A DNA stretch of 26,237 nt, from NCBI GenBank assembly GCA_038324295.1, contig JBBQHV010000001.1:1-26237 (forward strand), given 5' to 3'. Shown here piece by piece: positions 2,090 through 24,194 of the stretch; within the stretch, counting starts at the first letter, position 1, and the number at the start of each line of letters is the position of its first letter. Origin of the DNA: Chthoniobacterales bacterium (GTDB taxonomy: Bacteria; Verrucomicrobiota; Verrucomicrobiia; Chthoniobacterales; UBA10450). The notes under the pieces were generated by a model. The model did no database searches, had not been told where the DNA came from, and was given only the letters and a program-made list of their open reading frames with translations. Position numbers and translations under genes: made by a program.

Positions 2090-4237
2090 ATGAAAGAAAT
2101 GTCTGCTTCACGAAGCGCGCCGCTCTGCGAGCGCTCCTCATTCGTTCTCACTGCTCTCGGCGCCTCCCTTGCGCTCCTGACTTTGAGTATTTTAGCAAGT
2201 CCCTCTGCCCTGGCTGCGGCATCGCAAAAAGCCACAATCGTCCACTCCTATCATAATGATGTCTCGCCACCCCTGCGCGATCAGGAGCCATGGCCCTTGC
2301 AGGTCCGCCAGGAGCGCGAGGCGGCCGAGAATCCGCCGATCATCGTCGCGCATACCGACAAAAAAGACCCGGTCGTGCAATCGAGCGCGCTCCTGCACGA
2401 GCTCGCTCCGAACATTCCGGCGCCTATTTTAAATTTTGCCGGCATCCCTTACCCCGGCGTGGGCTGCTTCTGCCTTCCGCCCGATACGAATGGCGAAGTC
2501 GGCGCGACCCAATACGTCCAGATGGTGAACGAAGCCTATCAGGTGTTCGACAAGGCTACGGGAGGTTCTCTTCTTGGACCGAACAGCATCGAGTCGATCT
2601 GGGCCGGCTTCGGCGGCGCTTGTCAGACTGGAGGCTTTGGCGATCCGGTCGTGCTTTATGACCAAATCGCGAATCGCTGGGTCATCACCCAATTCGCGAG
2701 CGCGACGGGGAGCACGCCGATCACTGATGAATGCGTCGCGGTCTCGACGACGAGCGATGCGACCGGGACGTGGAACCGTTATGGATTTCACCTCGGCTCG
2801 AATTTCTTCGATTACCCGCATCTCGGGGTCTGGCCCGATGCCTATTACATGAGCATGAACGTGTTCAATTCCAGCGGCACGGCCTATCTGGGTGTGCAGC
2901 CGTTTGCGTTTGATCGGGCGAAAATGCTCGCCGGGCAACCTGCGACATTTGTCACGACGGGCATCGTCTCGGGCGGAGGAGCAAACCCGCCGATGTTGTC
3001 GGCCGATCTCGATGGTTCGACCCTGCCACCAGCGGGAGCGCCGAATAGCTTCGTCATGTTCCCGGCAAGTGGCACTTATAAGGTGTATCACTTTTCAGTC
3101 GGCACTCCGTTTGGAACTTCGCCGAGCTTCACGCTCTTTGCCTCGCCCGCGGCCGCTGGATTTACCCAGCTGTGCCCGGGTAACCGCAGCTGCGTGCCTC
3201 AGTCTGGCACCAGTACCCGGATCGACGGCATTGGGGATCGCCTGATGTACCGGCTCGCTTATCGCAATTTCGGCGATCATGAGTCGGTCGTGGGCAATTT
3301 CACGGTGGGCGTGAGCGGTGTGGCTGGCATCCGCTGGTTTGAGTTGCGCGATGTGACCGCAGGACCGGTGACCAAGTTCCAGGAGGGAACTTATTCTCCC
3401 GATAGCACCTACCGCTGGATGGGGAGTGTCGCCATGGATAACCAGGGGAATATGGCTCTGGGCTACAGCGCTTCGAGCTCGAGCATCTTCCCGCAGATTC
3501 GTTACACGGGCAGGCTGGCGAGCGATCCGCTCAACACCCTGCCGCAGGGAGAAGGCCATCTTTTCGATGGAACGGGAGCACAAACGAGTAGCTCTTCTCG
3601 TTGGGGCGACTACAGCGATCTGACGGTCGATCCGGTCGATGACCAGACCTTCTGGTACACGCAAGAGTACTATGACACGACCACCTCGGTGGCCTGGCGC
3701 ACCCGGATCGGCAGTTTCAAGCTGGCGACGGGCGGCGGCGGGGTTAATTTGGTCAGCGCTGCTTCGGAGCTGACCCACGGTTCTGCCGGAACCTTCGACA
3801 TCGACATGCCGTTGAGCGGGCAATCGGGAGTGGAGAATCGCGTCGCCACCACCTACAAAGCCGTCTTCACCTTTGACGCGGCGGTCACCTCGGGTCAGGC
3901 GCAGATCGTTAGTGGCACCGCCACGGCGGGAGCCCCGACCTTCAGTGGGAACACGATGTCGGTCCCGCTGAGCGGGGTTGCGAACCAGCAGATCGTGACG
4001 ATCCGAGTGAAGAACATCAACGGCGGCGGCGGACAAACGGACGTTCCGTTCGGCTTCCTCATCGCGGACGTGACGGGCAACCGGACGGTTGATAAGCCTG
4101 ACCTCAACTCGATCAAGGCCAACGCGAACGATCCGATCAACAGCGGCAACTTCCGCAACGACATCGATACGAATGGATCGATCGCCAGGCCGGATGCGAA
4201 TCAAGTGAAAGCCCACAAGGGCCAGTCACTTCCGTAA
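2090..4237 (+). CDS. Secreted protein P1 (715 aa): uncharacterised beta-rich N-terminal domain, conserved pre-dockerin module and C-terminal dockerin-like domain
   Basis: Signal peptide, then motifs PPDTNGEVG...YVQMVN, GDPVVLYD, FFDYPHLGVW and RWGDYS. The C-terminus has DVTGNRTVDKPD...DIDTNGSIARPD, a duplicated Ca-binding loop-helix. An alternative start is ATG 2099. Confidence 0.85.
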   Translation: MKEMSASRSAPLCERSSFVLTALGASLALLTLSILASPSALAAASQKATIVHSYHNDVSPPLRDQEPWPLQVRQEREAAENPPIIVAHTDKKDPVVQSSALLHELAPNIPAPILNFAGIPYPGVGCFCLPPDTNGEVGATQYVQMVNEAYQVFDKATGGSLLGPNSIESIWAGFGGACQTGGFGDPVVLYDQIANRWVITQFASATGSTPITDECVAVSTTSDATGTWNRYGFHLGSNFFDYPHLGVWPDAYYMSMNVFNSSGTAYLGVQPFAFDRAKMLAGQPATFVTTGIVSGGGANPPMLSADLDGSTLPPAGAPNSFVMFPASGTYKVYHFSVGTPFGTSPSFTLFASPAAAGFTQLCPGNRSCVPQSGTSTRIDGIGDRLMYRLAYRNFGDHESVVGNFTVGVSGVAGIRWFELRDVTAGPVTKFQEGTYSPDSTYRWMGSVAMDNQGNMALGYSASSSSIFPQIRYTGRLASDPLNTLPQGEGHLFDGTGAQTSSSSRWGDYSDLTVDPVDDQTFWYTQEYYDTTTSVAWRTRIGSFKLATGGGGVNLVSAASELTHGSAGTFDIDMPLSGQSGVENRVATTYKAVFTFDAAVTSGQAQIVSGTATAGAPTFSGNTMSVPLSGVANQQIVTIRVKNINGGGGQTDVPFGFLIADVTGNRTVDKPDLNSIKANANDPINSGNFRNDIDTNGSIARPDANQVKAHKGQSLP

Positions 4238-4253
4238 TTAAGCAAAAATCATC

Positions 4254-4286
4254 CTTCCGAAGGTCGTCCTATCCGACCTTCGGAAG
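4254..4286. repeat. Perfect 13-bp stem-loop downstream of P1
   Basis: cttccgaaggtcg (4254-4266), a 7-nt loop, then cgaccttcggaag (4274-4286). Confidence 0.85.
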
Positions 4287-4292
4287 ATTGCG

Positions 4293-4326
4293 AACGGCGC
4301 TCTCTTCGGGGCGCCGTTTTGCTTTT
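4293..4326 (+). terminator. Rho-independent terminator
   Basis: aacggcgc...cTTCGg...gcgccgtt GC-rich stem with a cUUCGg tetraloop, followed by ttttgctttt. Confidence 0.75.
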
Positions 4327-4585
4327 CTCACGAATGCCCAGTCACACTGGGGGCACGCATCCGCTGATGGCATTCCTCACCACCAGAACCGGCAGCAATC
4401 GCTGACCTCCCGGAAAATTACTTTCTGGCAATGTTTACGCGATTTCGACAAAATAGACTTGCCAAAAGCTGCGGTTACCAAATAAAACGAAAAACTTCCG
4501 TTCCAAAAAAAAGACGTCCCTTTGTTCGCTGGTCGGCGATCCAAGGGTGCTCGGAAAATCCGGATCAGGAATTAACCATAAAACT

Positions 4586-7500
4586 ATGAAAAAAACGTCC
4601 CATAAGAAATCCGGCTTCCTTAGTTTCCGCCTTCTTAGCGCCTGCTTTCTTTGTTTGTGCGGCCTTCTGCTTTGCGCGCTGAGCGTGACGGCGGCGAAAA
4701 AGAAGCACCGGCGGCCGAATGCGCCGACCCCCGCGACGGGCACGGTTTCTCTCGGCAATCCCAGCCTCAGCTACGGCGATGGACCTTTCGTGATCGCAAA
4801 CGTGACGGCCCAGGCGGGCGACCCGGTCTGCACGGTGCCGATGTCCTGCAGCGATTTTGGTCTGACTGTGGATATGTCCGGCGGACCCGATCCGGACCCG
4901 ACTAAACAGGTGCGGGTGACGGTCAGTTGGCCGCTCAGTACTGCGGATTTTGACGTCTATGCTTACGCAAATTTTCCCGCGACAGGTTCGCCCATCAATA
5001 CTTCGGCTTCCTCGGCGGATCCGGAAGTGATTATTCTTCCCGCCGCCTCGGCCATTTACACTATCCGCACCATTCCATTTGCGCCGGCCGGACAGTCCTA
5101 CACAGCCACGGTCGCTCTGGAAAATGTCACCCCGGCGCCTCCGCCCGGCACTGCTCCTCCGCCCCGCTATCTCAATTATCCAGCTCCCGCCTCGGCCACC
5201 GGAGCTGACTCCGCGGGTGAACCTTCCGTCGGCGTCGATTGGAATCCCAATGTCCCCTCGCTCAAAAACGGACCGAACCCGCCCACCCCGGGAACTCCAC
5301 CGATGAACAACATCAATCTGAATACCGGTGGCGTGGCTTTCTTTACCGCGAACTTAAACGAGTTTCGGGTCGACTTTGACGATTGCGCGTCGCCCGCGAA
5401 GGACGCCTGGGTCGATGTCACTTTCGACACCCAAGGCGTGACCACGCTTGATCCGATTGGCTTTGTCGATCACCAGCTCCCCATCACCACGGGGACGGAA
5501 TCGGGCACGGGCCTGGGGCGAGTCTTCCAGGATCAACTCGCCGGCGCGACCAGTTTGCTCGCCTTTTCGGACGACGACGGGGGCAGTTGGACGCAATCAC
5601 AGGGATCTGGCCAACCGGCTGGCGTCGATCACCAAACGGTCGGCGGCGGGTCCTATGCCCCAACTGACCCGAACCAAGTACCGCCGGTCATCGAACCGCC
5701 TCACACTTATCCGCATCAGATTTACTACGCCTCCCAGGATATCGGCACGGCTTTTGCCGCGCGGAGTGACGATGGCGGCCTGACCTTTGGTCCGGGCGTG
5801 CCGGCATGGAACATCGCAGAGTGCGGCGGCTTGCACGGCCACGTCAAAGTGGGGCCTGACGGCACCGTTTATATTCCCAACAAGAGCTGCAACGGGGGAG
5901 CGAGTGTCGCTGTCTCGCGCGACAACGGCGTGAATTGGACGGTGAAAACGATCCACGAAGGCGCCTACACGGCGGGGTCCGGCGACACCGACCCGTCCGT
6001 CGGCATCGGATCGGATAATACCCTCTATGTTGGTTATCAGAATAGCGACGGTCATCCCCACATCGCTGTTTCGCAGGATCACGGCGATACCTGGCACGAC
6101 GTTGATGTCAGCCAGGGTGTCATCGGTAACGCCGTTTTCCCGCAAGTGATTGCGGGCGATGGCGACCGCGCCGCCTTCGGCTTCCTCGGCACTTCCACCC
6201 CGGGCGGTTATCAGGGCACCAATACCTTCACCGGTGTCTGGTATTTCTATATCGCCACGACCTTTGATCGCGGGCTGACTTACACCCTGGTCGAAGCAAC
6301 CAATGGCGACCCCGTCCAGGTCGGTTCAATCTGCACCGGCGGCACGACCTGCGGCGGCGATCGAAACTTGCTCGACTTTAACGACATTCAGCTCGATGCC
6401 GAAGGCCGCGTCGTGGCCGGCTTCGCCGATGGTTGCATCGGCCCGACCTGCAGCGCGAGCACGGCCGGAGCGCATGCCCCGCCCTACAACGAATCGCGCA
6501 GCGCGCTCGCCACTTTCATCCGCCAATCCGGTGGCCCGCGCCTCCTCAGCGCCTACGACGCGCAGGCCAGCTGCTCCGGGAGCGGTGGCTCGATCACCTG
6601 CACGCCCATCGAGCCGGGTGCGCCGCGGGTTGATTCGGTGGTGCGCAACGGCGTCCTCGTGCACCTCGATTGGTCAACCCCCGATAACGGGGGCGCGCCA
6701 CTTACCGGCTATAAGATTTACCGCAAGACTGGCGTCGGCGGTACCTACGCCCTCATTGCCACGGTCGCGACCGGTTGCCCAGCTTGTAAGACAGATTACG
6801 ACGACGCGACTGCGACCGATTTGAATGCAGACTATATCTACAAAGTCAGCGCTACCAATAGCGTCGGAGAAAGCGCCACCTGCATGGAATTTCCAGTCGG
6901 CGTGGCCGGGCCTCAGGAAAGCGCGTGCTCTCTCCCAGGCATAACTATTCTAACCGACGCGACGGGAGACGCGACCGACATGCTGCCGGGGCACGACGTG
7001 CAAAGCCTGCAGGTCGCGGAGCCGTTTTCCTTCGCAGCGAACAAGGTGGTCTTCACATTAAAAATGGCAGATCTCACCACGCTTCCGCCGGATACGGAAT
7101 GGCCCATCACATTTAACGGTGCAGACAGCATTAATTACACCGTGCGAATGACCAACTCTCCGGTCGATGGCTATGTCACCGGGCCCCCCCTCTTCCAAGT
7201 GGGACCGACCGTCGGGACGAAGGTGCCGGCTGACGCGGCAAGTAACTACAGCACTGATGGAACCATCACGATCGTGGTGCCCAGAAGCGCGATCGGCAAT
7301 CCGGCCGTCGGTCAACAGATCACCGGTTTCCTTGTCAGAATCGCGGCGAATCTGGTCGGAGTCACGATTACCCCCGATAACATGCCCGACAGCCTCGCGC
7401 CCTCCGGCAGCTACACGATTGTCGGCAACGCTTCTTGTGCACCAAACGCGCTGCCCGTCGCGGTTCTTGTCGGCACCGCTGATGGTGGGAACACCATGGG

Positions 7501-8302
7501 GCGCATCCTGGGTGATCCGCCGCTGCTGGTCCATTTCAATGCTTCCGGCTCAAACGATCCGGATGGCACGGTTGTGACCTATCATTACGACTTCGGTGAT
7601 GGCACGACTCTGGATAGCGGCAGCTCGATGGTCGACCATGTCTATACCAGGAACGGGACCTTTGCCGCCCGCCTTACCGTGACCGATAACGGTGGCGCCC
7701 TCAGCAGCAACACCGCCCAGGAAGAAGTGGAAGTGGAGCTACCGCTCGACGACACCGTCTCGCGCAAGGTTCATGGTGGCGCTGGCGCCTTCGATATCGA
7801 CCTCATGCCTGATGGTAACGGCGTTTACAACGTCGAATGTCGCAGAGAAGGCAGTGGCTACGTCATCCTCTACATGTTTGGCACGGAGTATACCGTGATG
7901 GGCAATGCCAGCAGTGTGACCGTCTCCAATGGCGGGACAGTCGCCAGCGATGGGCCGACCAGTAACCCGAATGAATATCAAGTGACAATCACCGGTGTGA
8001 CCAATGCCATCTCGCACATCATTACCGTGAGTGGTCTCCCGGTGAACAACGCCAATAAACCGGCTGTCAATGGCGGCAACGCCACCCTTAATAACGCGGG
8101 GGCTCGGCTGGATCTGCTCCAGGGCGATACCACTAACGATCGGATGGTGAACTCGGCCGATGCCAGCCAGACGAAAGCGCGCTCCGGCCAGACACTCAGC
8201 AGCGTTAGCGGCAACTTCCGCAACGACGTGACCGTCGATGGCCTCATCAATAGCGCCGACGCCAGCCTGGTCAAATCGAAGTCCGGCACCTCGCTGCCTT
8301 AA
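4586..8302 (+). CDS. Large secreted protein P2: N-terminal beta domain, Asp-box (BNR/sialidase-like) propeller, FN3, DxxGD-containing domain, PKD, pre-dockerin module, dockerin
   Basis: Start ATG 4586 (MKKTSHKKSGFLSFRLL...). Asp boxes SDDDGGSW, SDDGGLTF, SRDNGVNW, SQDHGDTW and TFDRGLTY. FN3 LDWSTPDNGGAPLTGYKIYR. PKD FNASGSNDPDG...YDFGDG...HVYTRNG...LTVTDNGG. Dockerin GDTTNDRMVNSAD...DVTVDGLINSAD. Confidence 0.88.
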   Translation: MKKTSHKKSGFLSFRLLSACFLCLCGLLLCALSVTAAKKKHRRPNAPTPATGTVSLGNPSLSYGDGPFVIANVTAQAGDPVCTVPMSCSDFGLTVDMSGGPDPDPTKQVRVTVSWPLSTADFDVYAYANFPATGSPINTSASSADPEVIILPAASAIYTIRTIPFAPAGQSYTATVALENVTPAPPPGTAPPPRYLNYPAPASATGADSAGEPSVGVDWNPNVPSLKNGPNPPTPGTPPMNNINLNTGGVAFFTANLNEFRVDFDDCASPAKDAWVDVTFDTQGVTTLDPIGFVDHQLPITTGTESGTGLGRVFQDQLAGATSLLAFSDDDGGSWTQSQGSGQPAGVDHQTVGGGSYAPTDPNQVPPVIEPPHTYPHQIYYASQDIGTAFAARSDDGGLTFGPGVPAWNIAECGGLHGHVKVGPDGTVYIPNKSCNGGASVAVSRDNGVNWTVKTIHEGAYTAGSGDTDPSVGIGSDNTLYVGYQNSDGHPHIAVSQDHGDTWHDVDVSQGVIGNAVFPQVIAGDGDRAAFGFLGTSTPGGYQGTNTFTGVWYFYIATTFDRGLTYTLVEATNGDPVQVGSICTGGTTCGGDRNLLDFNDIQLDAEGRVVAGFADGCIGPTCSASTAGAHAPPYNESRSALATFIRQSGGPRLLSAYDAQASCSGSGGSITCTPIEPGAPRVDSVVRNGVLVHLDWSTPDNGGAPLTGYKIYRKTGVGGTYALIATVATGCPACKTDYDDATATDLNADYIYKVSATNSVGESATCMEFPVGVAGPQESACSLPGITILTDATGDATDMLPGHDVQSLQVAEPFSFAANKVVFTLKMADLTTLPPDTEWPITFNGADSINYTVRMTNSPVDGYVTGPPLFQVGPTVGTKVPADAASNYSTDGTITIVVPRSAIGNPAVGQQITGFLVRIAANLVGVTITPDNMPDSLAPSGSYTIVGNASCAPNALPVAVLVGTADGGNTMGRILGDPPLLVHFNASGSNDPDGTVVTYHYDFGDGTTLDSGSSMVDHVYTRNGTFAARLTVTDNGGALSSNTAQEEVEVELPLDDTVSRKVHGGAGAFDIDLMPDGNGVYNVECRREGSGYVILYMFGTEYTVMGNASSVTVSNGGTVASDGPTSNPNEYQVTITGVTNAISHIITVSGLPVNNANKPAVNGGNATLNNAGARLDLLQGDTTNDRMVNSADASQTKARSGQTLSSVSGNFRNDVTVDGLINSADASLVKSKSGTSLP

Positions 8303-8388
8303 AATAATATCCTGCCCGAACGAGAAAAGCGTCATATCCGCCCAGGCAATCAACTACAACCACAACACCCGAAAGTGAATCTGACATC

Positions 8389-9048
8389 ATGAAAAAACTG
8401 CTCTTAACCACTGCTTGCCTCGCGATCTGCACCAGTTTCGCTCTTGGTCAGACCCAGACCATAGCGTTCGACGACGGTGTCGGGACGGCGGACGCCGGCA
8501 CCTACAATCCGACCGACACATTCTCGTTCACCGTTAACCTGACCCTGAGCGGATGGACGACCGCGGGCCTGACCGCTTCCGGTCTCTCCTATTGGCTGCA
8601 GGTGCCGACCGCTTTGGCGCCGTTTATTTCGATTACCACGAACACCTACTTCACCTTCACAGATTCGATCAACCCGAGCGTGCCGAAAACGTTCACCGAT
8701 TCAGCCAATGCCAGCCCCGGTTTTGTCTCTGACGAAGGGGCCTCCGACCTGGGCGATTTGGGGGCAATTACAAACGATATGTCGGAGGAGGTCCAGGATG
8801 GGACCTATCAAATGACCACAATCACATTTTCGCTCACTGGCGCTCCCGCCGGGAGCTACAGTCTGCTCACAACCACCCTTGGGGGCAAGGCATCGGAGGT
8901 GAACGACACCAACTTCGACACCCACTTCATTCCCACCGCCGCCTATCAGATCACGATCGTGCCGGAACCGTCGACCTGGTCCCTGCTCGTCCTTGGCGCA
9001 CTGGGAACGATCGGGCTGATCACTCTCCGCCGCACACGACGGGCCTAA
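8389..9048 (+). CDS. PEP-CTERM sorting-signal protein with a single ~170-aa, probably cohesin-like domain
   Basis: Signal peptide MKKLLLTTACLAICTSFALG. The C-terminus VPEPSTW + transmembrane segment + RRTRRA is a clear PEP-CTERM signal. The cohesin resemblance is by eye only (see findings). Confidence 0.85.
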   Translation: MKKLLLTTACLAICTSFALGQTQTIAFDDGVGTADAGTYNPTDTFSFTVNLTLSGWTTAGLTASGLSYWLQVPTALAPFISITTNTYFTFTDSINPSVPKTFTDSANASPGFVSDEGASDLGDLGAITNDMSEEVQDGTYQMTTITFSLTGAPAGSYSLLTTTLGGKASEVNDTNFDTHFIPTAAYQITIVPEPSTWSLLVLGALGTIGLITLRRTRRA

Positions 9049-9093
9049 CGCGACGAGCCAAGAGGGCGTCTAATAACTCCATGCCAACAGCCC

Positions 9094-9160
9094 ATTGTAG
9101 GGCGGCCGCTTCGGCTGCCCTGCTGCGGAACCGGGGCAGGCGAAGCGCCCGCCCTACAAT
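9094..9160. repeat. GTAG-type REP doublet (REPIN-like inverted pair)
   Basis: attgtagggcggccgcttcggctgccc (9094-9120) and gggcaggcgaagcgcccgccctacaat (9134-9160) are inverted, with 25/27 identity. Each arm is GTAG followed by a 9-bp hairpin. Confidence 0.8.
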
Positions 9161-9246
9161 TTCCGCCGTCGGACGCCTTTTTGGGCGCCCTCGAAGGCGA
9201 ACGGAGGCATAGTGATCTCGTCGAGCGGGTGCCGGCCTCGAAAGAA

Positions 9247-9882
9247 ATGAGATCGCACCGCGATCTCAGCTTCGCAGAGGGGAGAAGAATACTTTTCCTG
9301 GCGTTTTCCTGTCTCCTTTTGTCTTTCCCGGGATGCGCAAGGAAGAATGAGCCGGCTCAGCCGCAAGAAAGCCTCGGCGGAGCGCCCGCCAGGAAGCTCG
9401 ATGCCTGCGACCTCCTGAAAGCAGACGAGATTACTGCGATTCAGGGTTCGCCGATAAAGGAAACTAAGAGCAGCGCTTTCTCGAACGGGAAATTCCGGGT
9501 TTCGCAATGCTTTTACGAGGCGCTTGAACCCGGCAAGTCGATCAATTTGGCGGTGACATCGAGTGATCCGGATTCCTCCGCAAAAATCAGCCCGGGCGCG
9601 TTCTGGAAGGAAAAATTCGCCCCCTACCGCGGTGGCGCAACCGAGCGCGAGGAAACACGCGCGGAAGGAGAGAAGGAGGAGCGTCTCCCGCCGAAGCGAA
9701 TCGAGCGACTCGGTGACGACGCCTACTGGATGGGCCGGGACGCCCTTTACGTTCTAAAAGGCGATGTCTATGTCCGTCTTAGCATCGGTGGAGCAGACTC
9801 AGTCGAGACTAAGATCGAGAAAGCCAGGACACTTATGGCCCACGTGCTCGGTCGGCTCTCCACTCCCACGCCCAAACCATGA
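9247..9882 (+). CDS. Hypothetical protein, putative lipoprotein
   Basis: ATG 9247, then hydrophobic ILFLAFSCLLLSFPG-C (possible lipobox). It has a Cys pair DACDLL...QCFY and a C-terminal RIERLGDDAYW...LYVLKGDVYVRLSI. The start is uncertain. Confidence 0.65.
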   Translation: MRSHRDLSFAEGRRILFLAFSCLLLSFPGCARKNEPAQPQESLGGAPARKLDACDLLKADEITAIQGSPIKETKSSAFSNGKFRVSQCFYEALEPGKSINLAVTSSDPDSSAKISPGAFWKEKFAPYRGGATEREETRAEGEKEERLPPKRIERLGDDAYWMGRDALYVLKGDVYVRLSIGGADSVETKIEKARTLMAHVLGRLSTPTPKP

Positions 9883-10009
9883 AGTTCGAACGCGAATCCT
9901 CTTACTTGAACTTGGTTGGGTTCGTTTTTCGACATACCCAACGCGAATCCTTTTCAAACCGCAATGCCACCCCGCTTCGCCCTAAAAAGCAGCTTGTAAG
10001 AAAGGTCCT

Positions 10010-13000
10010 ATGAAAACAAAATCACCCGGCCAAAGCGGCCTCATAACTCTTCGCAGCTTCCTCGCCTGCACTTTGTTTTGTGGCTCTCTTTTCCTCATCC
10101 TCGCTACTTTCGCCGCTTCGCCGTCTGGCGGGAATATTACTCCTACGGGTCCAAATCTGGCCTGGACGGGTACCGCCTCCGGCATCCCGCCGACCGGTGG
10201 AGCCGAGGACGCGTGCGAAGAAGGGACTAACTGTGATAGCTATGCTCTCACCATTTCGGGAGTGCCGGCTGATTGGATCGCTGCGAGCAAGCAGGTGCAC
10301 GTCCAGATCAATTGGTCGCTGCCCGCCAGTGACTATGACCTCTACGTTCACAAGGGCGGGCTGGATGGGCCGGTCGTGGCTTCCTCTGGCTCCGCCGGCA
10401 CCACCTCAGAGCAAGTCGACCTCAATCCTGCCAGCTCCAGCATCGGGACCGGTCTCTTCACCGTGCATGTCGTTTATTATGCCGCCACCCAGGCCGACCA
10501 ATATAGCGGGGTCGCCAACCTCGCTTCGGCCGGGGCCGCGCCCATGCCGGCGCCGACACCATCCTCCGGCTTTGCCCCACGCTACGAGACCTACACACCT
10601 CCCGCGGCTGGCCCTGCGACTCTGGGTCTTCATGCAGGTGAACCCTCGATCGGCATCGGCCTGGGCGTCGCCGGGCATCCCGAAGGCCGTTCCATGTTTC
10701 AATCCGACATCCAGACCCTGCGCACCACCTTCAACGGCCCCTGCGATACGCCCCGCGCCATTTGGGAAGACAAATCCGCCCCCACCTCGCAAGTCGATTT
10801 CGATCCGATCCTCTTCACCGATCGGGTAACGGGACAGACGATCGTCCATCTCCTGACCTTTGCCGGACAGGTCCTGGTCGGCGAATCCTCCGTGACCAAT
10901 ACAGCCGCTCCTCTCAATGATGGCGACACATGGGTTGCGAGTAATGGCACCGGGATCGGCTCTGGGATCGATCACCAAACCGTCGGCGGCGGGCCCTATC
11001 ACTCCCCCCTCATTCCGCCGCCTCCGCCGGCCTATCAACATGCTGTCTATTACTGCTCGCAAGCTTTGGTGGACGCCAGTTGCGCGCGCAGCGATGACGG
11101 CGGGGTAATTTATAACAGTCCGTCGGTCGTTATTTACACCACTGAGTGCGGCGGACTTCATGGCCATGTCAAAGTGGCTCCGGACGGAACCGTTTACGTG
11201 CCGAACAAGGGTTGCGGCGGCGCACAGGGCGTGGCGGTGTCGGAAGATAACGGACTGACCTGGGCGGTTCGCACTGTTCCGGGCAGCACCGCGGCCGGGA
11301 GCGATCCTTCTCTCGGGATCGACGCGAATGGCCGGGTTTATTTCGGATACGCGGACGGCGACACCAAGGCGGTAATCGCAACTTCGGACGACCAGGGCCA
11401 AAACTGGAGCCAGCCCCTCGATGTCGGAGCGGCTTTTGGTATTAATAACATCGTTTTCCCAGCCGTGATCGCGGCGGATGCCGACCGCGCCGCGTTCGGC
11501 TTCCTCGGCACGCCCACCGCTGGCGGCTTGCAAGGGCCAAGGTTTACCGGCGTCTGGCACCTCTATATTGCCACTACGTTTGACGGCGGCGCCACTTGGC
11601 AGACGGTCGACGCCACGCCTAACGATCCCGTGCAACGCGGCTGCGTCTGGGAGGGTGGCGGATCGAATATCTGCCGCAACATGCTCGACTTTATCGATCT
11701 TCAGATCGATCAGGAGGGGCGTGTCCTGGTCCCATTGGCGGATGGCTGCGCCGGTGGCGAATGTGCTCAGGCTGGCGCCGGAGCGATTGGTAATTCCTAC
11801 ACCGCTTTTGCCACCATTGTCCGCCAATCCGGTGGTCGCCGTCTCCTCCAGGCCTTCGATCCGCCGGAAGTCGCCACCGTCCCGGGGACGCCTTTTGTCA
11901 CGACCAAGCGCAATGGCACTCACGTCTATCTAGGCTGGTCAGAGGCGGACAACGGCGGGACCGCCCTCACCGGATTTGATATTCTTCGGGGCACCGCCAG
12001 TGGCGGCGAAACGCTCCTCGCGTCCCTCCCCGGCACCCAATTGAGTTACGACGATGCGACAGCCACCAACACCGCAGCCACCTACTACTACAAGGTGGAA
12101 GCGAGCAATGCTCAAGGCGCCTCTTGTGGTGACAACGAAGTGGCCGCCCGTTACGTCGGGAGCTCGGCCACCGGCTTCACCATCTCGGCCGATCCAACCG
12201 GCGATCAGGTGGGCGGCCCGGCGAATGCCGATCTCGACATCCAATCGCTCTCCATCACTGAACCCGGCTCGGGCCCTAACGCCGGCAAACTTGTCTTTAT
12301 GTTGAAAGTGACTGACCTGAGCACGATTCCACCCAACCGGCGTTGGAGAATCATCTGGGACTCGCCCACCGCGCCCGACGGGCAGTTCTACGTCGGTATG
12401 ACCAGTGACATGGCCGGAGCGGTCTCCTTCGAGTATGGCACGGTGTTTACGGAGGTGGTGGGCCTGGTCCTCGGTGTGCCGACGGCGACTCCGCTGGGGC
12501 CGCCGGATGCTGGCTCTTTTACACCCGCCGGCATCATTACGATCGTTGTTTCCAAGGACAAAGTGGGCAACCCGCAAACGGGCGATTTGCTGGGCGCTTT
12601 CTCCACCCGCACTTATCCTGACCCGGGCGACATGATGCGTTCGACCGACGCAACCGATACGACCTCCAACGCCACTGCGAACGACTTCACCGCCAACGCC
12701 GCCACCTACGTGCTGGCGGGCCCCATTCCCGGGCTCAATAAAGCCGTCTCCAGGAAGGTCCACGGATCAGCCGGGGCATTCGATATCGACCTGCCCCTGG
12801 CTGGAACGCCTGGGATCGAATGTCGCAGCGGAGGCAGCGGCAAGACCTATCAGGTGGTCTTCACCTTTGCCGGACCCATCAATCTGGGCTCCGCCACGGT
12901 GACAGCGCCCGGCGGGGGATCGGTCACGAACGCGAGCGCCGGCGGAAACACCGTTACGGTTAACCTTCAAGACATCGCTAATTTGCAGACGATCTCGATA

Positions 13001-13267
13001 AATCTCTTTGGCTTGAGCGGCGCCGTCTCGGGCGATCTTAGCATTCCGATGGGGATGCTGCTCGGTGACACCACCGCGGACCGGAGTGTCAACTCCGCGG
13101 ATGTCGGCGAAACTAAATCCAGGTCTGGTCAGATCGCCCAAGCGGGGAACTTCCGCAATGATGTCACGGCTGATGGTCTAATCAACAGCGCTGATGTCGG
13201 TCTGGTGAAATCGAAATCCGGCAGCAGCCTGTCGGGCCATCAGCGGCGGGGGCGCCACCCAAGATAA
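10010..13267 (+). CDS. Large secreted protein P3 (paralog of P2 without PKD): Asp-box propeller, FN3, DxxGD domain, pre-dockerin module, dockerin
   Basis: Signal MKTKSPGQSGLITLRSFL... Shares DHQTVGGG, ECGGLHGHVKVxPDGTVYxPNKxC, GDPVQ/NDPVQ, R(N)xLDF and RQSGGxRLL with P2. Asp boxes SDDGG, SEDNGLTW, SDDQGQNW and TFDGGATW. Dockerin GDTTADRSVNSAD...DVTADGLINSAD. Confidence 0.88.
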   Translation: MKTKSPGQSGLITLRSFLACTLFCGSLFLILATFAASPSGGNITPTGPNLAWTGTASGIPPTGGAEDACEEGTNCDSYALTISGVPADWIAASKQVHVQINWSLPASDYDLYVHKGGLDGPVVASSGSAGTTSEQVDLNPASSSIGTGLFTVHVVYYAATQADQYSGVANLASAGAAPMPAPTPSSGFAPRYETYTPPAAGPATLGLHAGEPSIGIGLGVAGHPEGRSMFQSDIQTLRTTFNGPCDTPRAIWEDKSAPTSQVDFDPILFTDRVTGQTIVHLLTFAGQVLVGESSVTNTAAPLNDGDTWVASNGTGIGSGIDHQTVGGGPYHSPLIPPPPPAYQHAVYYCSQALVDASCARSDDGGVIYNSPSVVIYTTECGGLHGHVKVAPDGTVYVPNKGCGGAQGVAVSEDNGLTWAVRTVPGSTAAGSDPSLGIDANGRVYFGYADGDTKAVIATSDDQGQNWSQPLDVGAAFGINNIVFPAVIAADADRAAFGFLGTPTAGGLQGPRFTGVWHLYIATTFDGGATWQTVDATPNDPVQRGCVWEGGGSNICRNMLDFIDLQIDQEGRVLVPLADGCAGGECAQAGAGAIGNSYTAFATIVRQSGGRRLLQAFDPPEVATVPGTPFVTTKRNGTHVYLGWSEADNGGTALTGFDILRGTASGGETLLASLPGTQLSYDDATATNTAATYYYKVEASNAQGASCGDNEVAARYVGSSATGFTISADPTGDQVGGPANADLDIQSLSITEPGSGPNAGKLVFMLKVTDLSTIPPNRRWRIIWDSPTAPDGQFYVGMTSDMAGAVSFEYGTVFTEVVGLVLGVPTATPLGPPDAGSFTPAGIITIVVSKDKVGNPQTGDLLGAFSTRTYPDPGDMMRSTDATDTTSNATANDFTANAATYVLAGPIPGLNKAVSRKVHGSAGAFDIDLPLAGTPGIECRSGGSGKTYQVVFTFAGPINLGSATVTAPGGGSVTNASAGGNTVTVNLQDIANLQTISINLFGLSGAVSGDLSIPMGMLLGDTTADRSVNSADVGETKSRSGQIAQAGNFRNDVTADGLINSADVGLVKSKSGSSLSGHQRRGRHPR

Positions 13268-18331: not shown

Positions 18332-18548
18332 CACCAGGAGGATCGTTTTTTCCGGAAAGAGTCGCAATCGGAGCGCGAACGCTTCCGTGCTTCCGAAGAA
18401 CTCTTACTGCTCGCCGGTGCGGAACGATCCTTGAGCGCAATTCGTCAGGTAAACGGACGTCTGACCTCGCCCCCTGGCGCGTTTGCTGTTTGGACCAGGC
18501 GGCATTCCGCATGACATTGCCAGCGGAGGCCGGCGTCCTCTTACTTCC

Positions 18549-21500
18549 ATGCCCGAATCCTCTTTGCCCGAATCGCCCATGCCTGCGGAAGAGCTCGATC
18601 CCGCCGCGACGGATGAGACGACAGAGAACGCGCGCGACGGAGGAAGAAAGCGACGTAACGGACACGAGCCGGCGGCGGTCGTGGGTCTCGGCGCGTCGGC
18701 CGGCGGCATCGCGGTGCTGCAACAATTCTTCAACGACATGCCGGGCGAGAGCGGCCTCGCCTTTGTCGTCGTGATGCATCTTTCGCCGGAGCACGAGAGC
18801 AATCTCGCGAGCATCATTCACCAGAGGACGACGATGCCGGTGACGCAGGTGAGCGAGCCGGTGAATGTGCAGCCGAATCACGTCTACGTCATCCCGCCTA
18901 ACAAACAGCTCGCCTTCGAGGACGGGATGTTGCGATTACTCGAACCGCAGCAGGCGATCGGGCGCCGCGTCACGATCGATCTTTTCTTCCGCACTCTCGC
19001 GGTCGCTTACGGTCAGCGTTCGGTCTGCATGATCCTCTCCGGCACCGACTCGGATGGAGTGATCGGCTTGAAGCACATTCGCGCCCAGGGCGGGGTGACG
19101 ATCGCGCAGGACCCGAAGGAGGCGGAATACGACAGCATGCCGCTCTCGGCGATCAGCACCGGGATGGTCGATTGGGTGCTGCCGGTCGCGGAGATGGCGC
19201 CGAAGCTGATGGAGTTTGTCCGCAACGAAACCCGCATGCAGTTACCGCCGGAGATCCTGGAGGCGGAGGAGCCGGATGCGAAAGATCGGGAGGCGGCCGG
19301 GGGCGAGACCGTCGCGGCGGAAACGCGCGGAGCGAAGGACGAAGCGGCTTTGCGTGAAGTGCTGACGATTCTGCGCCGGCAGACAGGTCACGATTTCAGC
19401 CACTACAAGCGCGCCACCCTCCTGCGCCGGATCGCGCGCCGGATGCAGGTGAACTCGATGGAGAGCATCCCGGCATATCTGGAATTTTTCCGCCAGCATC
19501 CCGCGGAAGCGAGGGAGCTGCTGCATGACCTTCTTATCGGCGTGACGCATTTTTTCCGCGACCGCGCGTCTTTCGCCGCGCTCGAGGCGAATATCCCCCA
19601 GCTTTTCGCAGGCAAACAAAAGGACGACCAGATCCGCGTCTGGGCGGCGGGCTGCGCGACGGGCGAGGAAGCCTATTCCATCGCGATGCTCCTCTGCGAA
19701 TATGCCGAACGGCTCGATTCCCCGCCGTCGATTCAGATTTTCGCGACCGACGTGGACGAGCAGGCGATCAGCGACGCGCGCCAGGGCATTTACCCGGTTA
19801 CGATCGAAGCGGACGTCTCGAACGAGCGGCTAAAGCGCTTCTTCGCGAAGGACCATGGGCGTTATCGCGTGCGCAAGGCGCTGCGCGAGAAAGTGCTTTT
19901 CGCCGCGCACAATCTGCTCAGCGACGCGCCCTTCTCGAATCTTGATCTCGTCTCCTGTCGCAATCTGCTGATTTATCTCACGCCTAAGGCGCAGCAGATC
20001 GTCTTCGACATTTTTCATTTCTCGCTCCGGGCGGGCGGTCTGCTCTTCATCGGCGGCGCGGAGACCGGGAGCAACATGCACGCGCTTTTCTCGCCGGTGG
20101 ATGCGACGCATCGGCTCTACGTGCGCCGTTCCGTGCCGCGGCCGAGCTGGAAGATTCCGCTCATTCCGGCCCGCGCCCGCGACCGCGCGGCGCCGCCGAG
20201 CGCGCCGAGGAAACGCTCGCTCTCACCGCTCTCGTTCCGGAGTATGGAAGCAGCCGGCACGGAGACGCGCGACTCGACGCAGGCGGGGCAGAAGCGGCGC
20301 TCCGCGCTCTTTGGCGAGCTGCACCTGAAATTACTCGAGCAATACGGCCCGCCTTCGGTCGTGGTGAACCAGGATTACGACATCGTGCATCTCTCGGAAC
20401 ATGCCGGGCGCTATCTCCGGTTCGGAGCCGGGGAGCCGACCGCAAACCTCATGAAGGCGCTCAACCCCGCCTTGGAGATGGAGCTGCGCACGGCCCTCTT
20501 CCGCGCGTCGCGAACGAAAGAGGCGAGCCAGGGGGCGCCCACTTTGGTCGAGTTCGATGGGACGAAGGAAGTCGTCACCATCAGCGTGCGGCCGGTTCGG
20601 GCGGAAGATATCGAACAGGGCTTTTACCTCGTTCTTTTCCAGAAAGAGACCGGCGAACCGCCGACGCCTCCGCCAGCGCCGTTATCGCACGACGCCGTCA
20701 CCCGCAATTTGGAATCCGAGATCGACGTTCTCAAGCACCAGCTCAACGACACGAGCGAACAGTACGAAGCGGCCAATGAAGAACTGAAAGCTTCCAACGA
20801 AGAGCTCCAGGCGATGAACGAAGAAATGCGTTCCGCGACCGAGGAACTGGAGACGAGCAAGGAAGAACTCCAATCGGTCAACGAGGAGTTGATCACGGTC
20901 AACAACGAGCTCAAAAGCAGCGTCGAGGAGCTGAGCCGGGCCAATGCCGACCTGACCAACCTGATGGCCTCGACCGATATCGGCACGATTTTTCTCGATC
21001 GCCAATTGCGGGTGCAGCGTTTCACCCCGAGCGCGCAGAAAGTTTTCAACCTCCTCCCGGCGGATGTCGGGCGGCCGATCTCCGACATTACGCACAAGCT
21101 CGCCTACGACGGCTTGATGGGAGACGCCGAGAAGGTTCTGGAAAACCTCACACCGATCGAGCGCGAGGTGCGTCTCGCAGGCGAGCAATGGTATCTCGTG
21201 CGGATGGCGCCCTATCGCACCGCCGAGGACCGGATCGCGGGCGTGGTCGCCACCTTTATCGACATCACGACACGCAAACACGCCGAAGAGCACCTGCGCG
21301 CGAGCGAGGAACGGATGCGGCGCGCGCTCGACATCGGCACGATCGGGATCATGTATTTCCGAGGCGACGGCCCGATCACGCAGGCGAATGACGCCTTTCT
21401 CCGCATGAGCGGCTATAGCCGGGCTGATCTCGAGACCGGCAAGCTCTCCTGGCAAGGGCTGACCCCGGAGGAATTCATGCCCGCCTCGCTTCGGGCGGTC

Positions 21501-23165
21501 GAAGAATTCGAGGCGCGCGGTGTCACCACGCCTTACCAAAAGCAATACATCCGCAAGGACGGCTCGCGTTTCTGGGCTCTCTTCGCCGCCACCCGGATCG
21601 GTCCAGAGGAAGGGATCGAATTCATCATCGACATCAGCGAGCAGAAGCGGGCCGAGGAAGCGCTCCGCGACTCGGAGGAGCGTTTCCGGCAGTTTGCCGA
21701 AAACTCGACCGACGTCTTCTGGATCGCAGACGCGAGCAGCCGGCAGATCGATTACCTCAATCCCGCTTATGAAAAAATGTGGGGCGAGCCGCGTGAGATG
21801 ACCCTGGGCGATTGGCGCCACTGGATGGAGACCATCCACCCCGAGGATCGCGAGAAAGCGGAGGGCGTCTTTCCAGAAATCCTGAAGGGCAAAACGTCCG
21901 TCGCTTACTACCGCATCACCCGTGCATCCGACGGCGAGATGCGCTGGATTCGCGACACCGGGTTTCCGATTCGGAACGAGAAGCGCGAAATCCATCGCGC
22001 CGCCGGCGTGGCCCAGGATGTGACGGAGGACCGGCAACGGGCCGAAGCCCTGCACGAGAGCGAAGAGCGTTTCCGCCTCCTCGTGGAAGGGGCGCGCGAA
22101 TACGCCATCTTCATGGTCGATCAGTCAAATACGATCGTGCACTGGAACGCCGGCGCCGAGCGCATCTTTGGCTGGACGGCGGAGGAAGCGATCGGCCAAT
22201 CCGGCGAGTTGATTTTCACTCCGGAAGATCGCGAGCGCGAGGAGGAGGAAAAGGAAATTGAGATCGCCTTGCGAAATGGAGTGGCGTCCGATTGCCGCTG
22301 GCATATGCGCAAGGACGGCTCCCGCCTCTGGGTCAATGGCGTCATGCAGCGGATCGAGGACGACGAAACCGGCGCCCTCCGCGGTTTCGCCAAGATCGCG
22401 CGCGACGCCACCGCGCAACGGGCGGCCGAGGAGAAGCTCAAAGCATCGCACCTCCAGCTCGAACAGCGGGTGAAAGAGCGCACCGCCGATCTCACCGCGA
22501 CGAACAAAAAGCTGCAGCAAGAGATCGAGCGGCGTTCTCGCCTCGAGCAGGAGATTTTACAAATCAGCGAGCGCGAAAAACGGCGAATCGGTCAGGACCT
22601 GCACGACAGCCTTTGCCAGGAGCTGGCCGCGACCGCTTTCCTTCTCGAATCGCGCGCCCAGAAAGTCGTGAAGAAGGATCCGGCCGAAGCCAAAGCCCTC
22701 TCCGAAGCCGCCCAGACCGTCAACGCCAACGTCGGCCTGGCGCGCGATCTCGCCCGCGGTTTGCATCCGATCGAGCTGAGCAGCACCGGCCTGACGAACG
22801 CGTTGCGCGAGCTGGCCTACCGCACATCGCACGCCGGGAAAGTCAGCTGCCACTTCGTTTCGGCCAAGCCGGTCCGGATTCGCGACGAAGCGGTCGCCCT
22901 CAACCTCTACCGCATCGCCCAGGAAGCGGTGACCAACGCCCTCAAGCACGGCAAACCGAAGAACATCACCATTTCGCTGCAACGGAGCCGCTCGCGCCTC
23001 CAACTCACCATCACCGACGACGGCGAGGGCATGCCCGGGAAGAAGAGCGGAAAAGGCATGGGCATCGACATCATGCGTTACCGGGCGAGCGCGATCGGCG
23101 GCGCCCTCACCGTGGAATTCAACGCCCGCGGCGGCACCACCGTATCCTGCGTCCAGCCCGCTTGA
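18549..23165 (+). CDS. CheB methylesterase-CheR methyltransferase-coiled coil-multi-PAS-histidine kinase (HisKA_3/NarX-type) fusion
   Basis: CheB triad motifs GASAGG, HLSP and LSGTDSDG. CheR motifs WAAGCATGEEAYS and DLVSCRNLLIYL. A NEEL heptad coil, about five PAS-like domains, H-box RIGQDLHDSLCQ, N-box RIAQEAVTNALKHG, DDGEG and GMG. The start is ambiguous (ATG 18549 or ~18579; the ORF opens at 18483). Confidence 0.92.
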   Translation: MPESSLPESPMPAEELDPAATDETTENARDGGRKRRNGHEPAAVVGLGASAGGIAVLQQFFNDMPGESGLAFVVVMHLSPEHESNLASIIHQRTTMPVTQVSEPVNVQPNHVYVIPPNKQLAFEDGMLRLLEPQQAIGRRVTIDLFFRTLAVAYGQRSVCMILSGTDSDGVIGLKHIRAQGGVTIAQDPKEAEYDSMPLSAISTGMVDWVLPVAEMAPKLMEFVRNETRMQLPPEILEAEEPDAKDREAAGGETVAAETRGAKDEAALREVLTILRRQTGHDFSHYKRATLLRRIARRMQVNSMESIPAYLEFFRQHPAEARELLHDLLIGVTHFFRDRASFAALEANIPQLFAGKQKDDQIRVWAAGCATGEEAYSIAMLLCEYAERLDSPPSIQIFATDVDEQAISDARQGIYPVTIEADVSNERLKRFFAKDHGRYRVRKALREKVLFAAHNLLSDAPFSNLDLVSCRNLLIYLTPKAQQIVFDIFHFSLRAGGLLFIGGAETGSNMHALFSPVDATHRLYVRRSVPRPSWKIPLIPARARDRAAPPSAPRKRSLSPLSFRSMEAAGTETRDSTQAGQKRRSALFGELHLKLLEQYGPPSVVVNQDYDIVHLSEHAGRYLRFGAGEPTANLMKALNPALEMELRTALFRASRTKEASQGAPTLVEFDGTKEVVTISVRPVRAEDIEQGFYLVLFQKETGEPPTPPPAPLSHDAVTRNLESEIDVLKHQLNDTSEQYEAANEELKASNEELQAMNEEMRSATEELETSKEELQSVNEELITVNNELKSSVEELSRANADLTNLMASTDIGTIFLDRQLRVQRFTPSAQKVFNLLPADVGRPISDITHKLAYDGLMGDAEKVLENLTPIEREVRLAGEQWYLVRMAPYRTAEDRIAGVVATFIDITTRKHAEEHLRASEERMRRALDIGTIGIMYFRGDGPITQANDAFLRMSGYSRADLETGKLSWQGLTPEEFMPASLRAVEEFEARGVTTPYQKQYIRKDGSRFWALFAATRIGPEEGIEFIIDISEQKRAEEALRDSEERFRQFAENSTDVFWIADASSRQIDYLNPAYEKMWGEPREMTLGDWRHWMETIHPEDREKAEGVFPEILKGKTSVAYYRITRASDGEMRWIRDTGFPIRNEKREIHRAAGVAQDVTEDRQRAEALHESEERFRLLVEGAREYAIFMVDQSNTIVHWNAGAERIFGWTAEEAIGQSGELIFTPEDREREEEEKEIEIALRNGVASDCRWHMRKDGSRLWVNGVMQRIEDDETGALRGFAKIARDATAQRAAEEKLKASHLQLEQRVKERTADLTATNKKLQQEIERRSRLEQEILQISEREKRRIGQDLHDSLCQELAATAFLLESRAQKVVKKDPAEAKALSEAAQTVNANVGLARDLARGLHPIELSSTGLTNALRELAYRTSHAGKVSCHFVSAKPVRIRDEAVALNLYRIAQEAVTNALKHGKPKNITISLQRSRSRLQLTITDDGEGMPGKKSGKGMGIDIMRYRASAIGGALTVEFNARGGTTVSCVQPA

Positions 23166-23441: not shown

Positions 23442-24194
23442 GTGATCTTCGACACCAGTAACGCAGTCGGGACGAAGTCAGCGTCCGCCGGTCGGCCGAG
23501 AGCGAGGATTTTGAAGAGAAGTAATGCGAAAAAAAATTCGGAACCGAGGAAACGCGGCATCCTCCTGGTCGACGATCATCCTCTTTTTCGCAAAGGCATG
23601 GGCCAGCTGCTTAATGGCCAGCCCGATCTGCAGGTAAAAGCCGAGGCCGAGAACAGCGCCGGAGCGCTCAACGCGATTCGCGCGCAGCGCTTCGATCTCG
23701 CGATCGTCGATATCGGTCTGCGCGGCGGCGCTAACGGCATCGAGCTGATGAAATTCATCAAAGTCGAGCGCCCGGAATTGCCCGTCCTGATGGTCTCGAT
23801 GTACGACGAAGCGCTTTACGCGGAGCGGGCTTTGCGGGCGGGCGCGCGCGGCTACGTCATGAAACGCGAGGCGCTCGATTGTGTCCTCGGCGCGGTCCGG
23901 AGCGTCCTCGAGGGCGAGATTTACATCAGCCCGGCGATGTCCAAGCGGATGATCTTCGATCACATCCACAGCGGCGGCGAAGCGCGCAGCGCGGTCGAGC
24001 GCTTGAGCGATCGCGAGCTCGAAGTCTTCCAGCTCATCGGCGAGGGCCGCGACATGCACGAGATCGCCGAGGACCTGCATTTGAGCAAAAAAACCATTGA
24101 AGCCCATCGCGCCAACATCAAGGAGAAGCTCGGTGTCTCGAGCGCGCGCGAGGTGGTGCGTTACGCCACGCAGTGGGTCGGCCAGCAACGTTAG
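23442..24194 (+). CDS. NarL/LuxR-family DNA-binding response regulator
   Basis: Receiver domain ILLVDDHPLFR, DLAIVDIGL, VSMY and YVMK. The LuxR HTH is LSDRELEVFQLIGEG...KTIEAHRANIKEKLG. The start is uncertain (GTG 23442 or in-frame TTG 23511 behind gagg). Confidence 0.93.
   Translation: MIFDTSNAVGTKSASAGRPRARILKRSNAKKNSEPRKRGILLVDDHPLFRKGMGQLLNGQPDLQVKAEAENSAGALNAIRAQRFDLAIVDIGLRGGANGIELMKFIKVERPELPVLMVSMYDEALYAERALRAGARGYVMKREALDCVLGAVRSVLEGEIYISPAMSKRMIFDHIHSGGEARSAVERLSDRELEVFQLIGEGRDMHEIAEDLHLSKKTIEAHRANIKEKLGVSSAREVVRYATQWVGQQR

Follow-up and report, generated by a model that had tools for sequence, protein, structure and literature searches.

A candidate non-cellulosomal cohesin-dockerin docking system with a PEP-CTERM anchor protein in a Chthoniobacterales bacterium

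The stretch of DNA analysed here (the window, 26,237 nucleotides) is contig C1 of a 2.09-Mb, 370-contig metagenome-assembled genome (MAG) of a Chthoniobacterales bacterium, a soil-type member of the Verrucomicrobiota by the source names of its close homologues. It carries four co-oriented open reading frames (ORFs) on the plus strand, termed P1, P2, the anchor and P3, which we describe as a candidate cohesin-dockerin docking system. P1 (2090-4237) encodes 715 residues that comprise a signal peptide, a 7-bladed beta-propeller and a C-terminal X-dockerin module. P2 occupies an ORF at 4547-8302 and starts in the database copy at the ATG at 4586 (4586-8302, 1238 residues); its domains are, in order, a signal peptide, an N-terminal domain, a BNR/sialidase-like propeller, further beta domains, a PKD domain and an X-dockerin. 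The anchor (8389-9048) is a protein of 219 residues with a signal peptide, a predicted cohesin-fold domain and a PEP-CTERM tail, and its ATG lies 86 nt past the P2 stop codon. P3 (10010-13267, 1085 residues) is a paralogue of P2 and ends with an X-dockerin and a short basic tail. Read by eye from the sequence, the N-termini of all four ORFs contain a basic and then a hydrophobic stretch resembling a Sec signal peptide.

Alignment of the C-termini of P1, P2 and P3 revealed a shared module of about 175 residues with 33-38% identity to that of P1. This module consists of a beta-rich part of about 100 residues (the X part), which bears a conserved SRK-x-HG...FDI motif, followed by a duplicated dockerin. 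The modules are located at 3707-4234 in P1 (X beta-sandwich at residues ~552-657 and dockerin at residues ~658-715), at 7721-8299 in P2 (Pfam dockerin match at 8123-8278) and at 12698-13234 in P3 (Pfam dockerin match at 13061-13213), all on the plus strand. Each dockerin contains the loop D-x-[TD]-x-[DN]-x-x-[VI]-x-x-x-D twice, and a helix with lysine at position 17 comes after each copy; a conserved G-x-x-L-P is found at the extreme C-terminus of the modules. Judged by their sequence, the modules have the layout of a dockerin, with two tandem 12-residue loops predicted to bind Ca2+, each accompanied by a helix. The P2 module scores 23.4-28.9 bits against Pfam Dockerin_1 (PF00404), or 26.7 bits as an isolated module, and exceeds the cut-off (gathering score) of 22.9 bits; the modules of P1 and P3 are homologous to that of P2 over the whole module length despite Pfam scores below this cut-off.

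A profile (A3) was built from 15 modules found in the window, elsewhere in the genome and in related loci, and was used in a search of the PDB sequences. It matched the dockerin of Clostridium thermocellum Xyn10B (2ccl_B, E 7.6e-9; also 1ohz_B) and the type II X-dockerin of CipA (2b59_B, E 1.1e-7), and the latter alignment runs from inside the X part through the dockerin. Every one of the 15 modules has aspartate at positions 1 and 12 of both loops. The AlphaFold (AF2) model of P1, with a predicted local distance difference test score (pLDDT) of 84.8, places a beta-sandwich at residues 554-656 after the propeller and two helices in the dockerin (residues 669-677 and 700-708) at pLDDT above 90. 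The genome of the window contains at least 8 copies of the module, which occupies the C-terminus in 110 of 119 database homologues. An earlier note, made from the letters of this DNA, had described three co-oriented secreted proteins ending in duplicated dockerin repeats, and the ORFs, the loops and the Lys-17 helices were all confirmed. Its dockerins need a correction, as the duplicated repeat is present and the units are X-dockerin dyads; the recognition by PF00404 that it had looked for was obtained with P2 but not with P3 or P1.

The anchor is divided into a signal peptide (8389-8448), one beta-rich domain of about 170 residues (8449-8958) and a tail (8959-9045), all on the plus strand, and the tail comprises VPEPS, a transmembrane helix and RRTRR. 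This tail was recognised as PEP-CTERM by both PF07589 (23.7 bits, cut-off 20.7) and TIGR02595 (21.6 bits, cut-off 16), and 76 of 79 members of the anchor family possess it. An exosortase is encoded on contig C96 of the same genome (PF09721 at 164 bits; TIGR02602 at 144.9 bits, cut-off 105.55), with an EpsI gene next to it. The earlier account of a PEP-CTERM protein with one beta-rich domain of about 170 residues, encoded 86 nt after P2 without an intervening terminator, was correct on each of these points.

Searches of the anchor with Pfam and NCBIfam gave the PEP-CTERM tail as the sole match, and searches of the PDB sequences with the anchor and with its family profile returned nothing meaningful. 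An AF2 model of the anchor based on 79 family sequences reached a pLDDT of 93.4 and a predicted TM-score (pTM) of 0.83. A VIA comparison of this model with 48,161 PDB chains placed cohesins at ranks 1-18 with Z scores of 9.7-12.5. The alignments span 127-143 residues of targets that are 135-170 residues long, nearly their whole length, and cover cohesins of types I, II and III as well as those of Clostridium perfringens and Archaeoglobus. The first matches outside the cohesins were YcnI and a CLIPPER domain at Z 9.2. Cohesins were also on top in a Foldseek search of the PDB (2vo8, 6kgf and 2vn5 at E 2e-6 to 1e-5), and the neighbours of the anchor in the ESM Atlas and AFDB included Cohesin/Dockerin clusters and PEP-CTERM clusters with some PF00963 members. 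The model thereby predicts the nine-stranded jelly-roll beta-sandwich of about 140-170 residues that is typical of a cohesin, a fold which the earlier note had set beforehand as a point on which its proposal could fail and which it had anticipated rightly. With no sequence-level cohesin match and a cohesin fold in the model, membership of the anchor among the cohesins therefore rests on fold and not on sequence.

The linkage of the X-dockerin tag to this putative socket was surveyed in 151 species genomes of the order Chthoniobacterales. A full-length profile of the anchor family (A1) mostly matched the PEP-CTERM tails of unrelated proteins and was replaced by A5, a profile of the core alone that lacks the PEP tail. 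The core profile was positive in 19 of the 151 genomes and the X-dockerin profile in 22; all 19 anchor-positive genomes were also X-dockerin-positive, and 129 genomes lacked both. The matched presence of tag and socket is patchy and extends over five taxonomic families (f1, f63, f64, f6 and f4). No P value is attached to this co-occurrence because the positive genomes are related to one another. The copy number per genome ranges from 1 to at least 22 for the X-dockerin versus 1-3 for the anchor.

Gene order was then available for 22 of 23 substantial anchor matches, one being located at a contig edge. In 20 of these 22 cases (G346 included after its region was inspected), the anchor lies on the same strand as an X-dockerin match that ends about 100-700 nt upstream of it. 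In loci L012/13, where the anchor is 79% identical, and L015, where it is 60% identical, an orthologue of P2 with a terminal X-dockerin is encoded directly upstream of the anchor homologue. Four X-dockerin genes surround a single anchor in L016, with one of them directly upstream of it, and L017 contains two tandem pairs of an X-dockerin gene followed by an anchor gene. A short cohesin-like remnant (profile positions 119-147) is encoded on the minus strand of contig C1 of genome G393 (L039, 10854-11162), between X-dockerin genes that form a cluster of at least three, and may represent decay of an anchor. The expectation of the earlier note that this PEP-CTERM family would co-occur with dockerin genes is borne out by the 19 genomes and the 20 upstream neighbours.

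Five longer homologues of the anchor domain were tested (P0077, P0081, P0104, P0106 and P0109), and all five contain Pfam Dockerin_1 in the same chain. The dockerin matches score 14.5-43.9 bits, with four of the five over the cut-off, and are usually positioned directly N-terminal to the cohesin-like domain; such fusions could serve as adaptors or could self-associate head to tail. Additional domains in these dockerin/cohesin-like fusions are a DUF5122 propeller, CHB_HEX_C and CarboxypepD_reg. Genome G338, a relative that has the divergent system, also carries a pair that Pfam recognises in full (L022, contig C77): the protein encoded at 2-1330 ends in Dockerin_1 (42.3 bits) and, 38 nt further on, 1369-1983 encodes a 204-residue protein with a Pfam Cohesin domain (24.7 bits) and PEP-CTERM. 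A 207-residue protein with Pfam Cohesin (45 bits) and a VPDSG-CTERM tail is encoded on the minus strand of contig C3 of genome G417 (L019, 1381-2004), so that a cohesin is here combined with a second type of exosortase signal.

The proteins that carry the tag are varied. The 7-bladed propeller of P1 (residues ~107-547, 2408-3730) matched no Pfam family and gave generic propeller matches at Z ~22, and the propeller also dominated the matches in a fold search with the whole P1 model. This propeller belongs to a very large and strongly conserved family of at least 7,987 homologues, the best 120 of which are 54-85% identical to it, and members of the family bear varied C-terminal appendages (fn3, Big_5, FG-GAP or dockerin). 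P1 is unrelated to P2 and P3 over its first ~540 residues, and searches of the PDB sequences for P1 and P3 found no solved relatives. P2 and P3 share 37% identity, and P3 lacks the PKD domain. Pfam detected PKD_4 (65 bits) in P2 along with BNR_2 at 23 bits, below the cut-off; both paralogues have Asp-box/BNR propellers that fall below the Pfam cut-off, and from the sequence no sialidase activity can be claimed for them. Homologues of the module are attached to BNR/sialidase-like propellers, PKD domains and a phosphoesterase (PF04185), and further to thermolysin-like, reprolysin-like and subtilisin proteases and to FG-GAP/VCBS, NHL, Kelch and beta-helix domains. The earlier note proposed propellers as the cargo; the range of cargo in relatives is much wider. 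Among P1-P3, Pfam found no glycoside hydrolase or carbohydrate-binding module family, only the BNR_2 match below the cut-off and PKD. A cellulosome was considered for the locus and rejected, since a scaffoldin with several cohesins and a cargo of carbohydrate-active enzymes are both absent; the anchor has a single cohesin-fold domain.

A terminator-like hairpin on the plus strand (4292-4319, a 12 bp stem with a T-run) separates P1 from P2 and the anchor. No terminator-like hairpin was found on the plus strand in the 86 nt that separate P2 from the anchor. An inverted repeat follows at 9094-9160, 46 nt past the anchor stop, with 27-nt arms that are 93% complementary, a 13-nt loop and a GTAGGGCGG...CCGCCCTAC core. 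Both a terminator and a repeated palindromic element are conceivable, and the repeat probably marks the end of the unit. Because a hairpin follows P1, the gap is free of a terminator and the inverted repeat follows the anchor, P2 and the anchor look like one transcription unit. The interval between the anchor and P3 contains a small ORF (9247-9882) whose N-terminus (LSFPGC) resembles that of a lipoprotein. This ORF matches DUF3558 weakly, at 18 bits and under the cut-off, and no DUF3558 protein was found among the neighbours of anchor homologues in related loci. Directly upstream of P1, a membrane protein of the vitamin K epoxide reductase (VKOR) family is encoded at 834-1898, which may be relevant to disulfide formation in Cys-containing secreted proteins. 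Farther downstream, the window contains a 1560-residue fusion of a CheB methylesterase, a CheR methyltransferase, several PAS domains and a HisKA_3/HATPase kinase (18483-23165), followed by a LuxR-type response regulator (23442-24194).

We consider it likely that the products of the locus form a docking system of cohesin and dockerin that is non-cellulosomal and adapted to a diderm bacterium. In the mechanism that we propose, P1, P2, P3 and the anchor would all be exported via Sec, and the exosortase would recognise and cleave the PEP-CTERM tail and attach the cohesin to an acceptor in the envelope or the exopolysaccharide matrix. The X-dockerins would bind this cohesin through their two Ca2+-loaded loop-helix repeats and would thereby tether the tagged cargo to the cell surface or matrix, the cargo being propellers here and proteases, phosphoesterases and other proteins in relatives. 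We infer a cell-surface location for the anchor and its cargo. A handful of sockets, 1-3 in each genome, would accommodate a much larger set of tagged proteins, which numbers at least 8 here and at least 22 in relatives. The more far-reaching claim, that a Pfam-invisible, exosortase-processed cohesin family is the dedicated receptor for this whole X-dockerin-tagged set in the Chthoniobacterales, we hold with less assurance and favour by a narrow degree.

Several results weigh against the docking hypothesis. Pfam found no PF00963 cohesin match in the anchor, in its own genome or in the 79 family members. The earlier note had proposed PF00963 as a check on the product of 8389-9048, and its reading needs a correction in that this cohesin was recognised neither by Pfam nor by profile comparison. 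A comparison of the core profile with the Pfam-positive cohesins of relatives by hhalign was not significant (E 0.06-0.35) and aligned only a motif resembling strand 8, and the Z scores of cohesins exceed those of other beta-sandwiches by only about 3 units. On the side of the tags, Dockerin_1 scores are below the cut-off for P3 (16.7-21.8 bits; isolated module 20.4) and for P1 (14.7-16.8 bits; isolated module 14.7). The loops of the P1 dockerin (4064-4234) read DKPD and ARPD versus NSAD in P2 and P3, so that loop positions 10-11 are K-P and R-P in P1 and S-A in the other two. Three genomes have the X-dockerin with no anchor detected, the anchor homologues on contig C2 of G385 and contig C2 of G357 have no X-dockerin gene within 5 kb, and that of locus L014 has no X-dockerin neighbour. 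The MAG is only 56% complete. Finally, it is not known to which acceptor exosortase substrates are attached, where they end up or how the cargo would cross the outer membrane.

Some of these results would fit an anchor that is a conventional exosortase substrate of the matrix or surface, one whose beta-sandwich merely resembles a cohesin and which binds no dockerin, in a neighbourhood of co-regulated secreted envelope proteins. The absence of any Pfam or profile-level cohesin signal, the Z scores of 8-9 obtained with other beta-sandwiches (YcnI, CLIPPER and pilins) and the few anchors that have no X-dockerin neighbour are all consistent with such a protein. It would nonetheless have to account for cohesins filling ranks 1-18, and co-regulation alone would not predict the conserved order in 20 of 22 cases, the co-occurrence in 19 of 19 genomes or the dockerin in five of five fusions; we regard it as unlikely. 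A partner-free role for the X-dockerin, as a Ca2+-dependent tail that binds carbohydrate or exopolysaccharide or as a secretion signal, would agree with the finding that proteins of very different kinds have the module at their extreme C-terminal end, with the conserved G-x-x-L-P in which the module ends and with the three genomes in which the module occurs and an anchor was not detected. The module profile, however, matches dockerins that bind proteins, and the module is tightly linked to a gene for a cohesin fold, which makes this the least probable of the alternatives and one to which we give very little credence.

An explanation closer to docking is that binding of the X-dockerin to the cohesin-like protein does take place, and that the latter acts as a transient escort, in exosortase-linked export or modification or in periplasmic retention, and not as a stable anchor. 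Exosortase reportedly acts at the inner membrane, as Haft et al. are said to have described in 2006 and 2012, and what becomes of its substrates is not known; the small number of anchors relative to the many tagged proteins would also suit an escort. The single-cohesin proteins that are known, ScaE, OlpA and OlpC, are anchors, and this comparison speaks against an escort, although the present data do not discriminate between escort and stable anchoring. We judge the escort improbable, to much the same degree as an ordinary sorted protein or slightly more so, and docking to a stable anchor remains the reading that we prefer.

If the docking hypothesis is true, a family of PEP-CTERM proteins gains its first defined molecular function, that of a cohesin socket. 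To our knowledge, exosortase substrates are numerous in environmental diderms and almost none has a known molecular role. The cohesin-dockerin principle, familiar from the cellulosomes of Gram-positive bacteria, would reach the envelope or matrix of the Verrucomicrobiota, as a cellulosome-style plug-and-socket display system for diderm bacteria, and would account for how abundant soil bacteria organise diverse secreted proteins. For the display of proteins in Gram-negative hosts, the same components would add a new orthogonal plug-and-socket pair. Because its cohesin is invisible to sequence profiles, such a system would escape Pfam-based surveys. A literature search, which left many subscription journals outside its reach, found no work that links a cohesin or dockerin with PEP-CTERM; within the same limits, cohesin and exosortase appeared together in one archaeal review only, which treats them separately. 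As a putative route by which diderms pin secreted proteins to their surface, the pair of a dockerin gene followed by a cohesin-PEP-CTERM gene is apparently undescribed.

Comparison with known systems helps to place the locus. The small secreted PEP-CTERM substrate PepA of Zoogloea, a floc-forming protein, is likewise beta-rich and is encoded in a genome with exosortase and EpsI; substrates of that type have no assigned partner-binding function, whereas the anchor described here has a predicted cohesin fold and a dedicated dockerin-tagged neighbour. Cohesins and dockerins also occur outside cellulose degradation in the glycosidase and toxin complexes of C. perfringens and in Archaeoglobus fulgidus, and the cohesins of both (2vo8 and 2w1n; 2xdh) are among the top structural matches of the anchor. 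Peer et al. are said to have surveyed such non-cellulosomal modules in 2009. We know of no description of these pairs with an exosortase signal or with a conserved cassette of a dockerin gene followed by a cohesin-PEP-CTERM gene.

For the tag, the closest parallel is the type II X-dockerin dyad of C. thermocellum CipA (2b59, 3kcp), in which an X beta-sandwich directly precedes a C-terminal duplicated dockerin. The dyad of the present locus differs in that it tags many enzyme-like or propeller proteins and not a scaffoldin, and its X part has a motif of its own (SRK-x-HG...F-D-I). The anchor, for its part, resembles ScaE of Ruminococcus flavefaciens (LPXTG/sortase) and OlpA and OlpC of C. thermocellum (surface-layer homology, SLH), each of which combines one cohesin with an envelope-anchoring signal, receives dockerin-bearing proteins and is encoded near its partner. 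All three (OlpA, 3ul4; OlpC, 4dh2; ScaE, 2zf9) are among the structural matches of the anchor model. Unlike these proteins, the anchor carries a PEP-CTERM signal for exosortase, belongs to a diderm host, has no detectable similarity to PF00963 and is associated with non-cellulolytic cargo. What is new in the proposed system is that the known cohesin-dockerin principle would be combined with anchoring by exosortase, with a cohesin of divergent sequence and with cargo that is not cellulolytic.

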